NCBI GenBank assembly: GCA_000091205.1
Contig: AP006497.2
Length of the DNA stretch: 64,000 bases
Strand: one strand, 5' to 3'
Source of the DNA: Cyanidioschyzon merolae
Lineage: Eukaryota
The first letter of the stretch is position 1; every line of letters begins with the position of its first letter. Position numbers and translations under genes: made by a program. Of this stretch, positions 11,813 through 20,716 are shown piece after piece. The notes under the pieces were generated by a model, which was given only the letters and a program-made list of their open reading frames with translations, searched no databases and was not told where the DNA came from.

Positions 11813-13126
11813 TCAGACGTTTTCCGGATGAAATTTGAGCAGCACGCCATCAGCACCCAAGACAAATCCTCGCTGCGAGCCGAAAAATTTGATCTTATAA
11901 AGATTGGCGCCTACTTTGCTCACAAGCGGATCGCGTCGCCATGTTTTGCCGCCATCATCGCTGCGGTACATGCTTCCACCACCAACCGCTGCCCAGACGT
12001 GCCGATCGTCCTGAAAAGCGACATCCAGGATACCGTAGCCACCAGTCTTAGAATCGACCATATCGAAGGCAATCGTCTCAGTTGAATTCAGGTTCACGTT
12101 CGGCTTGGTGAACCCCAGACCGCCGCCCCTGATCGTTTCCCAAATACCTTTGGTAGCGTCATTCTGAATGAAGCCGATTGCGCTGATGCGTCGCGAAGTG
12201 GATCGAGCGTGAGGCGTCCAAAAATCGGATCCCGGCACCCAGGTGAGGAAAAAGTTACCCCTTGAAGGTATCGCGATATAATTCCCGTGAACATCGCGCG
12301 ACACGGAAACGATGCTGCCGGTGAAATAGCTCGCTCCGGTGATACCAGAGGAGATCGTTCGATTCAAGGTAGCATCAATAGTCTCCCGTACCAGCGCCTT
12401 CCAATTGATACCACCATTTTCCGTCACGTAGATGGCACCCGAGCTGGTCACCATTTCAGCGCAGTTCGGACCGAGCGCAGTAACCAGCAGTGGCTCTCCG
12501 GGTAGCTTTGGAGAGAGGAGAATACGTGACCAGTTTTTGCCCCCGTCGGTCGAACGCAACATAACCGGAGGCTTACCTATGACCCAGGCCTCATCTCCAC
12601 TGAAACTCACGTTCGAGAAACGGTAGTTCAGCTCCTCCTCACGCTCGACGTCCTCGAAAGCGCGCGGTTCCCAGGTCTCGCCTCCGTCACGCGTTTCGAG
12701 GACCAGGCCACGAGTCCCTACAAGCCAGCCGTGATTAGGATCCTTCTGGCTGAAGTCTATGTCGAAGAGCACACTCTCCGTCGGCAGCGGCACCTGTTTC
12801 CAGGCGGCGCCTCGCACGGTCTCAGCGAGCGGTGCCGCAACTAGCGCTCCGCTGCGCGGCAAAGCAACAGCTAGCGCGCCAAGAGCTAGGTGATGCAAAA
12901 GTGCTCGTCGCGAAACGCTGAATCCAAGCTGAGACTCAACAACAGTTTCCGTATAGGCGTGTACGCGCTCGCCGTCGCTCATGCAGATACGCCACCGCTG
13001 ACGGTCCCCGCTAGCTCTCTCTGCTGCTGACCTGCTTCGCAGTACCTCCGCGTTACGACACCTGCTTTTGCTGCCGTGTGCCAGCAAGCCAGCAACGTTC
13101 GTGAACGCTACAGATACTGACGTCAT
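11813..13126 (-). CDS. HCF136: Photosystem II stability/assembly factor HCF136 (Ycf48), plastid-targeted
   Basis: The mature part (WKQVPLPTESVLFDIDF…DPNHGWLVGTRGLVLETRDGGETW… repeated DGG(K/E)TW/NW β-propeller blades …GVLLKF) matches Ycf48/HCF136 across the full length. It is preceded by an RR-containing hydrophobic lumen-targeting signal (SRRALLHHLALGALAVALP…A) and an S/T/R-rich transit-like region. The start is tentatively the ATG at 13124-13126 (MTSVSVAF…); the ORF runs to 13345. Confidence 0.8.
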   Translation of the reverse strand: MTSVSVAFTNVAGLLAHGSKSRCRNAEVLRSRSAAERASGDRQRWRICMSDGERVHAYTETVVESQLGFSVSRRALLHHLALGALAVALPRSGALVAAPLAETVRGAAWKQVPLPTESVLFDIDFSQKDPNHGWLVGTRGLVLETRDGGETWEPRAFEDVEREEELNYRFSNVSFSGDEAWVIGKPPVMLRSTDGGKNWSRILLSPKLPGEPLLVTALGPNCAEMVTSSGAIYVTENGGINWKALVRETIDATLNRTISSGITGASYFTGSIVSVSRDVHGNYIAIPSRGNFFLTWVPGSDFWTPHARSTSRRISAIGFIQNDATKGIWETIRGGGLGFTKPNVNLNSTETIAFDMVDSKTGGYGILDVAFQDDRHVWAAVGGGSMYRSDDGGKTWRRDPLVSKVGANLYKIKFFGSQRGFVLGADGVLLKFHPENV

Positions 13127-13990
13127 CGCCCAATATATCCTGATCAGAGGCCCTTCTAACCACTCACCACCACCGTCCCCTAGGTCGCACAGTGCTTCTA
13201 GTGATGCGATGCAGTACAAGATGCTGGCAGCGATGTGGGCGTGAGCGCTGCGGCTTCGCAGATCGCCGCCGCTGTCGCCGCGGATGCAGCGCATCGAGGA
13301 GCCTCTGCGGCGGTGCGTTGCTAAAGTGTGAAGCGACCTGTGCATCGTCGGAGTAGGTGCAGGAGTAGGTATAGGTGTAGAGGTAGGGGGTAGGAGTCAG
13401 TTGCGTCTGGGATAGACTTGACGACATCCACTGCGTCGCTGGATCTAGCCATTATGTCTGCGAGGAACTCTTCTCTGGGATATTGAGATGCACAGGCGCG
13501 TTTCTGGGGCGATCCAAGTCTCTTTCCAGCTCTGCTGAGGCAGCGGATGCACCTCGCGGCGGTATCTGGTTCGATGCATCGATCTGACGGCATGGGAAGA
13601 CTTGCGTGGCCGGTGTCTGCTGAGCCTCGGAATTTTTGGCGGGTCTCGGGGCCAACGTTGCCTCCTGCATGGTTTGGAATCGAAGGTAATTGCGACGCTT
13701 TGCGCATGGTCACGTGGATTAGTTCGCTGGGGCATGGCTATTGCCTCTCGTTCAGACACGCGTATATGGACCGCTTTGCAGGGTGTGCCTGCGTGAAGTA
13801 GACGCTGGACCAATCGGGGGATCCTCCAAGCGTCGAGCCTCTGATATTCGCAGCTGTACTGGCGCTTATGGGGCGTCGACTCGCTTCAAGCTATTGGATC
13901 CGATTTTTCTCCCGAGCGATCGGATGATTGATACTTCCTGTCAGACACACTCGAGTACGCAAATGCTACCAGTAACCGGGACGTCAGCGC

Positions 13991-14506: not shown

Positions 14507-14532
14507 GCTTGCTTGCTTGCTTGCTTGCTTGC
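14507..14532. repeat. (GCTT)n microsatellite
   Basis: gcttgcttgcttgcttgcttgcttgcc. Confidence 0.9.
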
Positions 14533-14847
14533 CTGCAGGTGCTCCACGAGAGACTGAGCACGCTCACGTCGTTACCCGGGTATAGCGTTGCGGTAGCTGC
14601 TGACTTTGTCCTGGAAGCCTGGATTTTGTGCGCGTTTCTAGTGATCGCGCGCTCGTTGGTACAGAAATCTTGTCAATCTGTGCTGTCTAAGTGTGCATTA
14701 ATCACGCCTTGGTCGCAAGGGTTTGGGCTTGAACAAGGAAGCGCGGACGCTGGGGTTTGCGCCACAGTTCTCGGTGGGGGACACGCTTGCGGTGCTTGAC
14801 AGCCGCACCTACACAGTAGAGAAGCGATTGATGCTCTTTCGCCGAAC

Positions 14848-16215
14848 ATGGCCGCTTACGTTTGGCGCTGTAAATTTGAGAGGTTTCCGTTTCGGAGCCT
14901 TCGGGAATGCCTCGATGAGGACAGCGGGAGCTGTACGTGTTGCTTTCGACGCTGGAGCTCGAGTGCTGAGTACTCGAGCGGCAGAGAGAGTTTTTCGGAA
15001 GATTGGAAAGACCGTACACGTGATGCATCGGAGTTGACGGGAAAGCGGAAGTACCCACGCGAGGCGCAGCCTGTTCGGATATGGACCAATCCCCGAGAAT
15101 ACGCGTTTTCAGAGTCATGGCTATCCAGCGATAGTGCCTTCGACTTGATTGCTATGGATGCGCAAGGGCGCCTAAGCACGTACCACTGGCACCGACGTCG
15201 GCTCCTACATGAGCTAAGTACGAACAGCTCAAGCACGCGACGAGCATCATTTACTGAAGCCGATTCCCGCAGCTCACCGGTACCGCATTCACAGTCGGAC
15301 TGGGAAAGCAGAGCCGCAATCTTGCAGTCACGTGATTTGCGGTTGCTGAATCCGATCTATCGAGACCAACCCGTATTTTTGATGCGTTCTGACCTGATTT
15401 TAGCTGCACTAGATCGTCATGTGTTGGCAATCATGCAACCAGGCAGACTTTTCCTGCAGCAACTAGCGTGCCCCGAATCGAAGTCTCTGAATGACCGCCT
15501 GATTCAGTGGATCCGCGTACGGCTGAGTGAGCACGGCAATGCATTCGAAGTGGTCGCTCTCGAAGCTCTGTTGGTGCTTGCCCACGAAACCCTCGCGCGA
15601 CGAGCGAATGTGGTCAAACTGGCACTTGAGGAGCGTCTTGCACCGTTCGCGAGTCACCCGAACAAGCGCTTACTCGAGGAAATCCGCGTGTTGAAACGTG
15701 AACTCGCCTCTGTGGCTACCGAGGCGCAAAACTACAGTGCCGCGTTGGAACGCGTGCTCGGTGACGATTTGCCGTGGCATATCGCTGAAATGACGCTTGT
15801 AGTGGCGTCATCTGGCGATATGCTGACAACGAGTAGCGATCTGGAATCGCTTTTGGAGAGCAGTATGCAAAAGTTTCGGGGCTGGAGCCGCCTCGCAAAC
15901 GAGTTATGCCATCGGGTCGGGAATGCGGAGCAGATTATTGAGTTGAGTTTAGCAGTCACGCAGATGCGCCTATGGTCGTTCGATGCCCTACTTCACCTCG
16001 TTACCGTGTCAGCGTTCCTGATAATGATTCCACCCGATTATTTCGGGATGAGCATCTGGATTCCGGTCTATGATCGTGTAGATATCTACTGGCCGTGGCT
16101 TCTTACTACGTTCCTTTTAATGTTGCTCAGTTTCGGATTCCTCGGGACTGGAATTTGGATACTTCGCAGAAAGAAGCTCCTGTTCCCTTTATTTAAATCG
16201 CGGGTAGATCATTAG
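14848..16215 (+). CDS. CorA/Mrs2-family magnesium channel with a GMS selectivity motif in place of GMN
   Basis: The C-terminus has the family architecture: an amphipathic helix, then TM1 ending …IMIPPDYFGMSIWIPVYD, a short loop, TM2 (WLLTTFLLMLLSFGFLGTGIWIL), and a basic tail RRKKLL. Compare plant MGT/Mrs2 …FGMNIPY. The Ser codon is AGC at 16051-16053. The N-terminal boundary is uncertain. Confidence 0.6.
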   Translation: MAAYVWRCKFERFPFRSLRECLDEDSGSCTCCFRRWSSSAEYSSGRESFSEDWKDRTRDASELTGKRKYPREAQPVRIWTNPREYAFSESWLSSDSAFDLIAMDAQGRLSTYHWHRRRLLHELSTNSSSTRRASFTEADSRSSPVPHSQSDWESRAAILQSRDLRLLNPIYRDQPVFLMRSDLILAALDRHVLAIMQPGRLFLQQLACPESKSLNDRLIQWIRVRLSEHGNAFEVVALEALLVLAHETLARRANVVKLALEERLAPFASHPNKRLLEEIRVLKRELASVATEAQNYSAALERVLGDDLPWHIAEMTLVVASSGDMLTTSSDLESLLESSMQKFRGWSRLANELCHRVGNAEQIIELSLAVTQMRLWSFDALLHLVTVSAFLIMIPPDYFGMSIWIPVYDRVDIYWPWLLTTFLLMLLSFGFLGTGIWILRRKKLLFPLFKSRVDH

Positions 16216-17319
16216 GGTTCAGGGTTGATCGCAGCGCCGAGACGCTGTTGACGTAAAGCGCGTAGCAACTGGCTGCGGTGCATTGCACGAAACCTGGAGA
16301 TTGATATCAAGTGCGTATCATCTGGGTGCTGTGTTCGCTTGAAACCGATCCCGCTACGCTGGAGCGCTCACCGTCGGGACGTTAGGCTCTCCAGGATATG
16401 CACATCACAGATCTCGTGGCCTGATAGCGATCGCTTTCACAAGTGGTGGCGCGCACCAGCCGACCATTTTCTTCGGTGTAAGATCCAAAAACCAAACCGG
16501 GATCTCCCCGAATGCACCACAGCATTCGCCAATGCGGGAATCGAACATCGCTCCACTCCATATAGCGTTATGTTTCAGAAAGCCCGGACCGGCTTTCACA
16601 AATCCATACCCCAAAGGAAGTTGCACTAGGGCGACACTGCGGCGACCGAGTACCTGGCGCGTCATCTTTATTCATGAGGTCGCAGCGTGCCATCGGACGG
16701 TTGCGTGTGGGTGATCCCGCTGACCTCTCATTGCAGTTTGCGTATGCGAGAAAGTCGCTTTCTGGAGTTGACCGCATACCCCTTGCAGGATGATGCGCCG
16801 CATCATCAACATATGGGGCTGGTTCCGCGGTGCAATGATGACTCGAAACCTATCGAGTAGGGCAGGAGGTATGCCCACCAGCCCCAGAAACAAGCCAGTA
16901 TGCCACATGCATGTTCTCTCCAGCGAATAGATCCCTTGCTGGAAAGTCGCCAGATAAGGATACGGCAAAGCCAAGGTTGCTTGTGGAGGCAGCGCACCAT
17001 TTCCAAACTTCTCGAGCAGAAGAGCGGTGGCGGACCTCGTCCATGCGTCCACGGTAACTTATGCTGTATCGCATTCGATGCTCTGAACGAGCGGACCAGT
17101 TTGACCAGTGGGAGCACTCCAGCTCCAAATGAATGCAGATAGTGTTTTGGCCCCGTGGCCTGGCATCACCACACGCGGACTTCATCAAGACACGGCACAA
17201 ACGAGCGGCAACATCCAGAACAATGCATTTCCGCTCCGGAATGCTGGTGAGAAACCGCCATGACGGACAATCGAAAGCCCGACATTCTATTGCGTCTAAC
17301 ACATTTACGATCATGCGCC

Positions 17320-17670
17320 ACCCAAGTACGCGCACAGTCGTCCATGCAGTGTTCAGCACCTGGAGCGAACGCAGCAAATGAGACTCCAGCGCAAGTCACA
17401 TACACTAGTACGCGCACAGTGGTCCATGCAGTGTTCAGCGCTTGGAGCGAACGCAGCAAATGAGACTCCTGCGCAAGTCACATACACTAGTACGCGCACA
17501 GTGGTCCATGCAGTGTTCAGCGCTTGGAGCGAACGCAGCAAATGAGACTCCTGCGCAAGTCACATACACCAGTACGCGCACAGTGGTCCATGCAGTGTTC
17601 AGCGCTTGGAGCGAACGCAGCAAATGAGACTCCTGCGCAAGTCAGATACACAAGTAGGCACATGTAAGCG
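17320..17670. repeat. 82-bp minisatellite, about 4.3 copies
   Basis: The unit agtacgcgcacagtggtccatgcagtgttcagcgcttggagcgaacgcagcaaatgagactcctgcgcaagtcacatacact repeats with period 82, with starts near 17325, 17407, 17489 and 17571. The last copy is degenerate. This explains the repeated MLRSLQALNTAW… antisense ORFs. Confidence 0.9.
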
Positions 17671-17998: not shown

Positions 17999-20716
17999 GT
18001 GCAAACGCGCACGTTGGTGAACACTATGGAAAAATTTGCGGATAATATTCCTGAAGAGGACCTGTCAGCCCTGGTGGAACTGGTTGAGGAGGGTGAAATC
18101 ACGTCGGAGGAGTTGGTGCAGCAACTGCAGCGCGCAGACTTGGGTGACCTCTCAGCGGAAGACGTCTACGAGCGCGTTTCGCGCTGGTTGGAGCGCCAGG
18201 ATCTCGCCGAAAACGTGCACGAATCTGTGGGTAGCGATGAGCCGGTTGAAGCACAGCCAGCTCCACAGATCGAGACTGACGTCAGGTCGGGTGAGGCACC
18301 GCGTGCCGTGACATCGAGTGCAACTAGTGACGCGCTGCTCGTGAGCCTTCTCCAAAAGGTACGCCAGCGACAACGCTTCTACGCTTCGCAGGCGGAACGG
18401 GTTGGTGCGGAGCTCAAACGCCTGCGCCGCCTTCTCCTCGACGAGCTGCGGCCGGGTTTGGAGGCGATTCACTCGGAAGCTCTAGATCGCCTTACAGAGT
18501 TGGCTGGTGATATCGGGGAACTTCGCTCGATACGCGATGAACTGCTCCAGCGTCGGGAAGAACGTTTACGAGAGCAGCTTGCAAGCGCTTCTGCAATGGC
18601 GAATACGCTCGAGAATGAACTGACCGAAGCGCTTAAGGAGGACGACGGCGAACGTGCTGCAAATTGCATGCTGCGTATCGAGGCGCTGTCGCAGGAAATC
18701 GAGGAGACACTAGGGCTGTCGCCTGGACAGATTGCAAAGGCCCGGCGGATGGCTCTCGAGCGCTACCGCACCTGGGTCTATAAGAGATGTGGAGCGTACC
18801 TCAATCGTCTGGGTCCGTGGCCGTCTAATCCGGACGCTGCTTTTTTGCGCAGACTGGAGGCGAGTGAGATCGCTGCTCGAATTCGAGCTTTAGCACAGCA
18901 GTCTGTGCGCGTGTTCCGGGGTCCAGATGCTGCCGGTTTCTACGGAGGCACGCTTAACGAAGAGGATGACCGCCGGAGTGCAACTAGTGAGTACAGTGGT
19001 TCCACCGCACATCGAGCTTCTGGACGCGATCGTCGCTACTTCGAGCACTGCTTCCTGCAGACCCAGGTAGCTGCGTTTGAAAAGGCGTTTCGCGAGGCCA
19101 TTCGCGCACCACCCGTACAAGCGAGCTCGGAGTCCAAGTTGTCTGTTGAGCAAGGAGCCCAGAAAGTTTCAAGCCAAGTCAGCGAGACAACGCCCAGCAG
19201 AGCAGTAATCGATTTCGCTGTTCACTATTTGAAAGAGTTTGCTGAGCGTTATCGACCGCTTTTGCGAGTCGTGTTTGATGGCATGGACGAAGACGTAGAT
19301 TTATTGGTCGAGTCCATGGTTCATGAGTTCATGGCGACCATCGCTGAAGTTGTATTTGCAGAGTTGGAGAACCGTTACAGTTTCGGTGAGGCCGAAGAGG
19401 ATAACGCGCGCCCAGCTTCAGGAATCTCGCACCTCTACGCGCATACATTGCAGCTGGTTGACGCGTTGGTAACGTTTGATCGAGATATGGCGTTGATAAT
19501 TGTCTCGGAGAATCACTCCTTAATGCATTCCTGGATGGAGGCGGAATTCCAAAGCGCGCTAAACAGGTTCGAAACCGCGCTGCGAACTCCTGGCGCTCTC
19601 GGTATCGTGATCCCCGGAACTGCAGCCTCCAGCGACCAACTTGACCTGCTCACCAAGGGTCGAGCCATTCTGGATTCATTTGCAGGTCATCAAAACCGCG
19701 CAACGACCGCTGCAGCGCTGCAGCTGGATGCCCTTCAACAGGCATCTCTAATCGGAGAAACGCTGCATTCCTTGGCGACCAGATGTCGAGCATTACCGCC
19801 ACATCCTCACCGTGCCCGTTACCGTTTTGCACAGTCTGTGATCGCTCCTCTTATCGGGTGGATCATGGCACAAATTCATTACCTGATGACCGAGACTGAA
19901 GCGCAATGTGCGACAAGTCTTCAAGCATCCATGCATGCAAGCGGGGCGCCCTCGGCGGAACGCTTCAAAGACTGTTACCTTTTGAGTGCGGATGCCTTGT
20001 ATCGGACGCTTTCCTATGCGGCGGCTGCCTACTTGCTTGCCGAGGATATTCGCCAACGAGTCGAAATATACCTCTACGAATTGGAGTTCAGCAACGCACC
20101 CGATCAAGGACCCGACAGCGAGCTCGAGTCCGAGAATGAGCAGAGCGCGCGCAGTGACGTGGTTGGCGCAGGCAATCCCTACGACGCCATCACCGCTGAG
20201 GTGACTGCTTTGCGCAAACTCTCAAGCAAAGCACTCGCTTCGTATGCTGACACGGTCACTGATATGCTAGCACCGTGCTTCCTTGAAGCTGACGCCGATG
20301 CGTCTCTAGCGACGCCGGCGCTGGTTGCGGCAGCGATGAGTACCATCCAGGATCTTGTTGCTTTGAGCGAGCTTCTCCTGCGTGGACACAGAACGCTGCT
20401 TCTCTGGCTATGGGCACCGTTCTTCCTTCAGCTCGATGCGAAATTGGCGATGTTCATTGCCCAGTGGCGACAGCAGCTGCAGGAGGCGAACGAAGCATCG
20501 CAGCCATTGCACAGCGCACGCGCGCACCACGAGTCAGAGGCACGTTCCATGCAGCAGAGTTTTGGCGCCTCCAAGCATACAGCACTTCCTATCCAAGCGG
20601 GTACTGTGCAGCAGCTTGCTGATTTTGCTGCTGCACATTTCCAGCTACGCCACACGCCACTGCATCAGACCCGCTTGGCACTTGAGCATATGCTCCAGTT
20701 CAGCGCTTCGGAGTGA
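17999..20716 (+). CDS. Large coiled-coil/α-helical hypothetical protein (905 aa); possibly a vesicle-tethering (CATCHR-like) complex subunit, not assignable
   Basis: Uninterrupted 2.7-kb ORF with protein-like composition, an acidic N-terminus, and predicted coiled-coil stretches (…RRLLLDELRPGLEAIHSEALDRLTELAGDIGELRSIRDELLQRREERLREQL…). It ends at a TGA that is followed in frame by another 172 protein-like codons (see findings). Confidence 0.55.
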   Translation: MQTRTLVNTMEKFADNIPEEDLSALVELVEEGEITSEELVQQLQRADLGDLSAEDVYERVSRWLERQDLAENVHESVGSDEPVEAQPAPQIETDVRSGEAPRAVTSSATSDALLVSLLQKVRQRQRFYASQAERVGAELKRLRRLLLDELRPGLEAIHSEALDRLTELAGDIGELRSIRDELLQRREERLREQLASASAMANTLENELTEALKEDDGERAANCMLRIEALSQEIEETLGLSPGQIAKARRMALERYRTWVYKRCGAYLNRLGPWPSNPDAAFLRRLEASEIAARIRALAQQSVRVFRGPDAAGFYGGTLNEEDDRRSATSEYSGSTAHRASGRDRRYFEHCFLQTQVAAFEKAFREAIRAPPVQASSESKLSVEQGAQKVSSQVSETTPSRAVIDFAVHYLKEFAERYRPLLRVVFDGMDEDVDLLVESMVHEFMATIAEVVFAELENRYSFGEAEEDNARPASGISHLYAHTLQLVDALVTFDRDMALIIVSENHSLMHSWMEAEFQSALNRFETALRTPGALGIVIPGTAASSDQLDLLTKGRAILDSFAGHQNRATTAAALQLDALQQASLIGETLHSLATRCRALPPHPHRARYRFAQSVIAPLIGWIMAQIHYLMTETEAQCATSLQASMHASGAPSAERFKDCYLLSADALYRTLSYAAAAYLLAEDIRQRVEIYLYELEFSNAPDQGPDSELESENEQSARSDVVGAGNPYDAITAEVTALRKLSSKALASYADTVTDMLAPCFLEADADASLATPALVAAAMSTIQDLVALSELLLRGHRTLLLWLWAPFFLQLDAKLAMFIAQWRQQLQEANEASQPLHSARAHHESEARSMQQSFGASKHTALPIQAGTVQQLADFAAAHFQLRHTPLHQTRLALEHMLQFSASE

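Follow-up and report, generated by a model that had tools for sequence, protein, structure and literature searches.

A serine or threonine replaces the asparagine of the GMN motif in a conserved Mrs2-like protein of cyanidialean red algae

The gene described here lies within a 64,000-nucleotide window of Cyanidioschyzon merolae contig AP006497.2 (assembly GCA_000091205.1), the window being the whole stretch of DNA that was analyzed, and encodes a protein of the Mrs2 family. The coding sequence is complete and intronless, occupies positions 14848..16215 of the plus strand, and specifies 455 amino acids followed by a stop codon, as identified from the open reading frame (ORF) list, an exact-sequence match and Pfam. 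The exact-sequence look-up matched the product residue for residue to BAM81644.1 / XP_005537680.1 of C. merolae 10D, which is annotated as "similar to mitochondrial magnesium transporter Mrs2p"; the window is accordingly nuclear DNA of a red alga. The asparagine of the GMN motif gives the superfamily its name (2-TM-GxN, where TM stands for transmembrane) and is taken as its selectivity filter. In the protein encoded here, the motif position reads G400-M401-S402 (16045..16053, plus strand; GGG ATG AGC), with serine for asparagine specified by the AGC codon at 16051-16053; the position was assigned from the sequence and from profile and structure alignments. Its sequence context is PPDYFGMSIWIPVYD, also given as ...FLIMIPPDYFGMSIWIPVYDRVDIYWPWLL....

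The C-terminal region contains two TM helices separated by a 12-residue loop and preceded by a large soluble domain, as indicated by hydropathy peaks at residues 375-399 and 411-440 and by an AlphaFold2 (AF2) model. All features of the gene lie on the plus strand. Residues 1-92 (14848..15123) form an N-terminal extension of low conservation that is predicted to be disordered, with a predicted local distance difference test (pLDDT) score below 50 in the AF2 model. Orthologs share about 20% identity across this extension, and the proportion of non-synonymous differences (pN) is roughly equal to that of synonymous differences (pS). The first 95 residues contain 17 lysines and arginines against 16 aspartates and glutamates, a net charge near zero; judged from its composition, the extension could be a candidate targeting region but is not an obvious presequence. 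Residues 93-375 (15124..15972) comprise a soluble Mrs2-type domain, made up of an alpha/beta subdomain and a helical bundle, and the stalk helix that runs into TM1 (AF2, Foldseek and Pfam); pLDDT in this region is mostly above 90. Within it lies an RDLR motif, R162-D163-L164-R165 (15331..15342), of which D163 and R165 are invariant in an alignment of 79 sequences. Further along are A369 (GCA, 15952..15954), which occupies the position of the inner pore aspartate ring according to column statistics and an ungapped alignment to human and Chaetomium thermophilum (Ct) Mrs2, and M373 (15964..15966), which column statistics place at the position of CtMrs2 N414. The pore-lining TM1 spans residues 376-399 (15973..16044; hydropathy, and an AF2 helix at 322-402) and contains W376 and D379. 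The TM1-TM2 loop, IWIPVYDRVDIY (16054..16089, delimited by alignment columns), contains W404, D409 and D412. TM2 covers approximately residues 415-441 (16090..16170; hydropathy, and an AF2 helix at 415-441), and a basic cluster, R440-R441-K442-K443 (16165..16176), stands at its cytosolic or matrix end. R440 and R441 are invariant in a three-sequence alignment, and R441 is nearly invariant among 11 cyanidiophyte sequences.

Pfam matched the protein to MRS2-like (PF22099) across residues 158-369, with 55.8 bits against a cutoff of 27 (E=5.2e-15). This was the only Pfam family matched; CorA (PF01544) gave no match, nor did an NCBIfam search of the protein. A phmmer search of PDB sequences with the single protein returned only noise; the Mrs2 structures came within reach once a profile built from the cyanidiophyte clade was used. 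The clade profile matched CtMrs2 (8Q8P/8Q8Q) at E=1.2e-35 and human MRS2 (8IP3/8TUL) at E=1.6e-21. The AF2 monomer model was built on 79 sequences, as an alignment of three gave a pLDDT of 48 and was unusable. Mean pLDDT was 79, with residues 93-445 mostly well above 70 and residues 1-92 disordered. In Foldseek comparisons, the target-normalised TM-score was 0.80-0.85 (root-mean-square deviation 3.3-3.8) against CtMrs2 and human MRS2, and 0.43-0.62 against bacterial CorA chains, below the Mrs2 scores. The whole Mrs2 architecture is kept: the soluble regulatory domain carries RDLR, its stalk helix runs on into TM1, and a short loop with acidic residues, TM2 and a basic tail follow. By descent and fold, the protein has its place in the CorA/Mrs2/Alr1 superfamily, on the eukaryotic Mrs2 branch. 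By motif definition it falls outside, as the G-x-N signature at the end of TM1 is represented by G400 and M401 with serine as the third residue.

When 1.84 billion representative proteins were searched with a profile, 343 matched with E up to 0.001. Of the matches listed, 150 remote homologs were placed in a hidden Markov model (HMM) alignment. Over its motif columns, 124 aligned stretches read GMN, 15 read GMS and one read GMT, and all 15 GMS stretches belong to the orthogroup of the C. merolae protein. In homologs from outside the cyanidiophytes, the third motif column is asparagine in 128 of 130. Other motif variants among the matches listed (SMN, TMN, HMN, AMN, GVN, GTN and GFN) keep the asparagine. 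The mutually unrelated eukaryotic Mrs2-like homologs P0035, P0039, P0040, P0044, P0075 and P0076 vary the first motif residue (SMN, HMN, TMN or AMN), all of them with asparagine retained, and two of these look like tandem double-domain proteins. In the alignments to CtMrs2 and human MRS2, TM1 is ungapped and GM[N/S] is in register. Since the HMM alignment and the alignments to both solved structures agree on the register, the serine truly occupies the asparagine position and does not result from misalignment.

AGC and AAC differ by one transition, and an artefact could have arisen from a base-call or assembly error in which AAC was misread as AGC, or from a misalignment that hid a true GMN elsewhere in the protein. 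We consider such an artefact extremely improbable. GMS was found in all 12 members of a 90%-identity cluster, which includes the 10D reference and sequences from assemblies of JGI metagenomes, ENA and Logan runs. Four independently assembled contigs carry AGC at the motif codon, as does the 10D reference, yet differ from the window at 7-8 other codons. The ortholog in Cyanidiococcus yangmingshanensis (51% identical locally and 44% overall) and that in P0015, an uncultured relative (42% identical overall), both read GMSIWIPVYD with an AGC codon, and the Cyanidium ortholog has threonine, encoded by ACG. Independent assemblies share the AGC codon, and so do orthologs with an overall identity of only 42-44%, which shows that it is not a read error. 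As for misalignment, three independent profile and structure alignments concur on the register, and no other GxN stands at the end of a TM segment. These results bear on a first-pass annotation of the window, made from the sequence alone. Its description of a CorA/Mrs2-type protein agreed with the Pfam, CtMrs2 profile and AF2 fold matches, and the proposed succession of TM1, signature loop, TM2 and basic tail was recovered by hydropathy, by the AF2 helices and by RRKK at 440-443. GGG ATG AGC is read at 16045-16053 as it stated, and the HMM and solved-structure alignments confirmed that the serine occupies the place of the asparagine of GMN. The two reservations that it attached, a base-call error and a GMN motif located elsewhere, are both excluded, the former by the 12 near-identical sequences, the two GMS orthologs and the GMT ortholog, and the latter by the profile alignment.

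The gene is part of a conserved block that spans window positions 5776-25983. Gene order in the window is Tim17, Clp1, the DNA primase small subunit, Ycf48/HCF136, the Mrs2-like gene and an ORF of about 900 amino acids, and continues downstream with a gene of the phosphoenolpyruvate (PEP) mutase/isocitrate lyase (ICL) family, a GST gene and a DSP phosphatase gene. The order is identical in Cyanidiococcus and around P0015. On a 48-kb ENA contig, Tim17, Clp1, an Mrs2-like gene (P0019), a 952-aa ORF, the PEP mutase/ICL gene and the phosphatase follow one another in matching order; no primase, Ycf48 or GST gene was called in this Cyanidium caldarium block. The RPL7 encoded on the same contig is 99% identical to that of Cyanidium caldarium. 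P0019, the C. caldarium ortholog, reads GMTLWLPIFN, with ACG as the motif codon. It was assigned to the orthogroup because of synteny, as the sequence tree leaves its placement open.

A look at related species thus found GMS at the syntenic loci of Cyanidiococcus and P0015 and GMT at that of Cyanidium caldarium. The loss of the asparagine is therefore common to three genera, Cyanidioschyzon, Cyanidiococcus and Cyanidium, and a hydroxyl side chain, from serine or threonine, is kept in all of them. From AAC, one step leads to AGC and one to ACC. The data fit equally well with a single origin and later interchange of serine and threonine or with two independent origins.

Several features near the gene were also recorded. 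The gene for the photosystem II assembly factor Ycf48/HCF136 (11813-13345, minus strand; PSII_BNR E=1e-116), whose product is extended by 170 aa at the N terminus, and the Mrs2-like gene point away from each other, with 1.5 kb of intergenic DNA between them. Approximately 310 bp before the start codon of the Mrs2-like gene is a (GCTT)7.5 microsatellite (14507-14536). Downstream, a tandem repeat with an 82-bp unit (17325-17656; 4.0 copies, 97% matches) separates the Mrs2-like gene from a 905-aa ORF at 17999-20716 on the plus strand, and ORF translations hint at related copies of the 82-bp unit further upstream, from about position 17100. The 905-aa ORF has no Pfam match; counterparts of 821-952 aa occupy the same position at the other three cyanidiophyte loci.

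The filter serine is not the only change in the pore. Pore positions were mapped on CtMrs2 and human MRS2, with the roles of residues taken from published work (PMC11919701, PMC10462007). A369 corresponds to CtMrs2 D410 and human MRS2 D329, which form the inner divalent site ("site 2"); this column is aspartate in 110 of 142 homologs and reads A/S/S/A in the four orthologs. M373 corresponds to CtMrs2 N414, a column that is asparagine in 140 of 141 homologs. It is M, L or I in the three GMS orthologs and remains N in the Cyanidium GMT ortholog. The inner aspartate ring and adjacent N414 that are typical of Mrs2 are thus replaced here by A369 and M373. Q372 stands at the gate arginine (R413/R332), where homologs have R (98) or Q (39), and is Q throughout the cyanidiophyte clade. 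W376 takes the place of the gate methionine (M417/M336), where homologs have L (111), I (15), M (9) or W (1); the paralogs also have W at this position, except P0022/P0023. D379 aligns with D420/N339, where homologs have D (63), E (39) or N (16), and is D in 10D, Cyanidiococcus and P0015; elsewhere in the orthogroup it is N in environmental C. merolae variants and S in Cyanidium. W404, at position N+2 of the motif, is common to the four orthologs, whereas 1 of about 111 other homologs has tryptophan there. The acidic residues D409 and D412 lie in a loop three residues longer than that of CtMrs2 (E449/E450), and the alignment is gapped there. The RDLR motif, acidic residues in the loop and the basic tail are kept. 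The changes common to all four orthologs, at the asparagine and the inner aspartate, fall on both pore cation sites of human MRS2. Loss of the inner aspartate is not unique to the GMS orthogroup, as the paralogs P0018 and CMN319C also lack it.

Selection on the gene was assessed by comparing pN and pS between regions. Synonymous sites are saturated between genera (pS 0.63-0.84), so that contrasts in pN/pS between regions alone are meaningful. Across TM1, the loop and TM2, Cyanidiococcus and P0015 differ with pN of 0.10 against pS of 0.75 and share 88% amino-acid identity; for C. merolae compared with either of the two, pN is 0.24-0.27. The first 152 residues are nearly neutral, with a pN of about 0.58 that comes near pS. 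By these counts, the pore module is the most constrained part of the protein and is under purifying selection, which speaks against both a decaying pseudogene and a pore without importance. Within the species, 3-4 synonymous and 4 non-synonymous differences were found, too few for a dN/dS test. The amino-acid differences of the environmental C. merolae-like contigs (L001-L004) from 10D are D55E, Y85C, W152C and D379N; the first three lie in the poorly conserved N-terminal region, and at residue 379 (15982-15984) the contigs have AAT (Asn) where 10D has GAT (Asp).

A rival reading is that the protein has lost transport and has been kept in another capacity that continues to constrain its membrane domain, for example as a Mg2+ sensor, a scaffold or a dominant-negative regulator. 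Purifying selection is strongest on the pore module, the GM[ST]-x-W-x-P loop included, which is hard to square with an irrelevant pore. D379, D409 and D412 also remain, and alanine mutants of the asparagine still conduct in CorA and human MRS2. The case for a non-conducting derivative is that both human MRS2 cation sites are altered (site 1 from Asn to Ser or Thr, site 2 from Asp to Ala or Ser), that the N414 equivalent is lost in the GMS trio, that the clade branch is long, and that D410A abolishes and GMN to AAA impairs complementation in yeast. Taken together, we regard loss of conduction as distinctly unlikely.

A second canonical copy was sought in C. merolae, and two were found. BAM80057.1 (536 aa, ADFFGMNLQIP) and CMN319C / BAM81388.1 (519 aa, ADFFGMNIAIP) both carry GMN, so that Mg2+ uptake need not depend on the GMS copy. 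Cyanidium likewise has GMN copies, namely P0018, which is in the assembly of the GMT gene (coverage 129x versus 130x), and P0023, named C. caldarium. In a neighbor-joining tree, the 11 cyanidiophyte sequences come out as a clade (88% bootstrap), as do the three GMS sequences (99%). BAM80057.1 and CMN319C resemble the GMS protein in belonging to this one cyanidiophyte Mrs2-like clade and in having Q372, R374, W376, IP.D.FGM and WPW; they differ from it in keeping GMN, and are 22-27% identical to it. BAM80057.1 keeps the D410 and N414 equivalents and looks like a canonical channel. CMN319C (P0187) and P0020 keep GMN and have A or T for the inner aspartate and T or I for the 99%-conserved asparagine; the CMN319C branch is long in the tree. 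Because CMN319C lacks both the inner aspartate and the conserved asparagine, pore remodelling is not confined to the GMS copy.

The presence of two GMN paralogs of the same clade in one genome raises a further explanation, in which the GMS protein would be a modulatory subunit that co-assembles with one or both of them as heteropentamers and tunes conductance or Mg2+ affinity, by substituting for one or more of the asparagine and aspartate side chains of the rings, while being inactive alone. Cyanidium caldarium repeats the arrangement, with P0018 and P0023 beside its GMT copy. TM1, the loop and TM2 are close enough to those of the paralogs for packing (RLWSF, IP.D.FGM and WPW are common to them), and hetero-oligomers have been reported in the Mrs2 family (PMC6972854). 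As an analogy, yeast Lpe10p is described as modulating the Mrs2p channel, in the Lpe10 paper as cited in PMC9276622. The N-terminal regions diverge strongly between the algal paralogs, however, and their compartments may differ. The analogy also leaves the loss of the asparagine unexplained, as Lpe10p itself keeps GMN. We consider an exclusively modulatory subunit unlikely, if less so than loss of conduction.

The reading that we favor, with a probability of roughly one in two, is that the GMS protein is a functional Mrs2 paralog specific to cyanidialean red algae, a pentameric cation channel, or a channel subunit, with an altered filter. According to this reading, the protein would still form a pentameric cation pore in which hydroxyl side chains, from serine in Cyanidioschyzon and Cyanidiococcus and threonine in Cyanidium, make up the ring in place of the asparagines, while the inner aspartate ring becomes alanine or serine and a tryptophan is placed two residues past the serine. 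Compared with a GMN ring, the pore entrance may have a weaker hold on hydrated Mg2+, the serine or threonine side chain being shorter and lacking the amide. Selectivity or conductance would then differ from those of the GMN paralogs, whether the protein assembles as a homopentamer or mixed with the paralogs.

Published mutants speak to both sides of this proposal. The first-pass annotation had stated that substitutions of the asparagine abolish Mg2+ transport, and this stands only in part. In growth and uptake assays, changing GMN to AAA in yeast Mrs2 impairs complementation, and D410A abolishes yeast growth (PMC11919701). By electrophysiology, microampere currents persist in TmCorA N314A with a weakened Mg2+ block, and only about half of the current is lost in human MRS2 N362A, whereas D329S/R drastically reduces the currents of human MRS2 (PMC10462007). 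Conduction without the asparagine is plausible, since both TmCorA N314A and human MRS2 N362A still conduct. The RDLR motif, which is specific to eukaryotes and stabilises the open state in CtMrs2 (PMC11919701), is retained in the GMS protein. Three points weigh against an altered-filter channel. A non-conducting protein, distinctly unlikely as we judge it to be, would also fit the growth-assay data, in which GMN mutations impair Mrs2 and D410A, equivalent to A369 here, abolishes growth. The 99%-conserved N414 equivalent is lost along with the filter asparagine in the three serine-bearing orthologs. Finally, the neighbor-joining tree does not settle the order of duplication among the cyanidiophyte paralogs or where P0019 belongs. 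The two outcomes raised by the first-pass annotation, a changed selectivity and a regulatory role, are both plausible.

A bolder form of the altered-filter reading is that the protein is the first natural 2-TM-GxN member with a conserved serine/threonine ring, the inner aspartate lost and a tryptophan gained at the pore mouth, and that it has a different permeant ion or selectivity. We put this forward tentatively, as possible but on balance doubtful. Relaxed divalent/monovalent selectivity or passage of another metal would be examples. The change would in that case go back to an ancestor shared by Cyanidium and Cyanidioschyzon, and would possibly be tied to life in acidic, metal-rich hot springs.

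The substitution matters because it falls on the residue that defines the family, at a time when recent electrophysiology questions how essential the asparagine is for permeation. Here, a natural exchange of asparagine for serine or threonine stands beside GMN copies in a pore that has been under strong purifying selection since before the split of Cyanidium and Cyanidioschyzon. S402 and the asparagine of the paralogs form a natural allele pair for what the asparagine ring adds to Mg2+ selectivity, block and conductance, and C. merolae is genetically tractable. The case is a clean and conserved exception, though of one paralog. It also carries a warning for annotation, as the label 'magnesium transporter Mrs2p-like' may misstate the real substrate of the GMS protein. 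To our knowledge, every natural variant of the motif on record retains the asparagine, and no description of a GMS variant of GMN in CorA or Mrs2, including BAM81644.1, was found in the papers that could be searched. A word-index search with the 96-aa pore module for further GMS proteins returned nothing, a result that probably reflects a limit of the search with short queries and is not evidence of absence. The GMS protein is neither a new system nor a plain new member.

Among known systems with a varied motif, rice has AMN in OsMRS2-4 and OsMRS2-5 and GIN in OsMRS2-8, which coexist with GMN copies; Mg2+ complementation is reported there for OsMRS2-1, -3, -6 and -9 only, and no transport activity for OsMRS2-4, -5 or -8 (PMC4613352). 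In these rice proteins the glycine or methionine is changed and the asparagine is kept, whereas the algal protein replaces the asparagine itself. It had also been suggested that the protein might resemble ZntB-like variants. ZntB, a bacterial Zn2+ transporter, has GVN or GIN with the asparagine kept, and illustrates that filter variation can accompany a changed substrate or transport mode. The comparison did not hold for the algal protein, which keeps the methionine without the asparagine and is Mrs2-like in sequence and fold, and a ZntB-like reading was rejected; ZntB was not among the PDB sequence matches or the best 50 fold matches. Yeast Lpe10p is a parallel as a second Mrs2-family copy in one organism and a precedent for hetero-oligomeric paralogs, but it retains GMN and has no specific relationship to the algal protein.

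A further comparison is with the solved Mrs2 proteins, CtMrs2 (8Q8P/8Q8Q), human MRS2 (8IP3/8TUL) and the N-terminal domain of yeast Mrs2p (3RKG), which have the same domain order and fold. The GMS protein has RDLR, a stalk helix that passes into TM1, the glycine and methionine of the filter, TM2 and the basic tail in common with them, and its loop too contains acidic residues. At an identity of about 18-19%, it differs in having serine for the filter asparagine (Ct N443, human N362), alanine for the inner aspartate (D410/D329), glutamine for the gate arginine (R413/R332), tryptophan for the gate methionine (M417/M336), methionine for N414, and a tryptophan at N+2.

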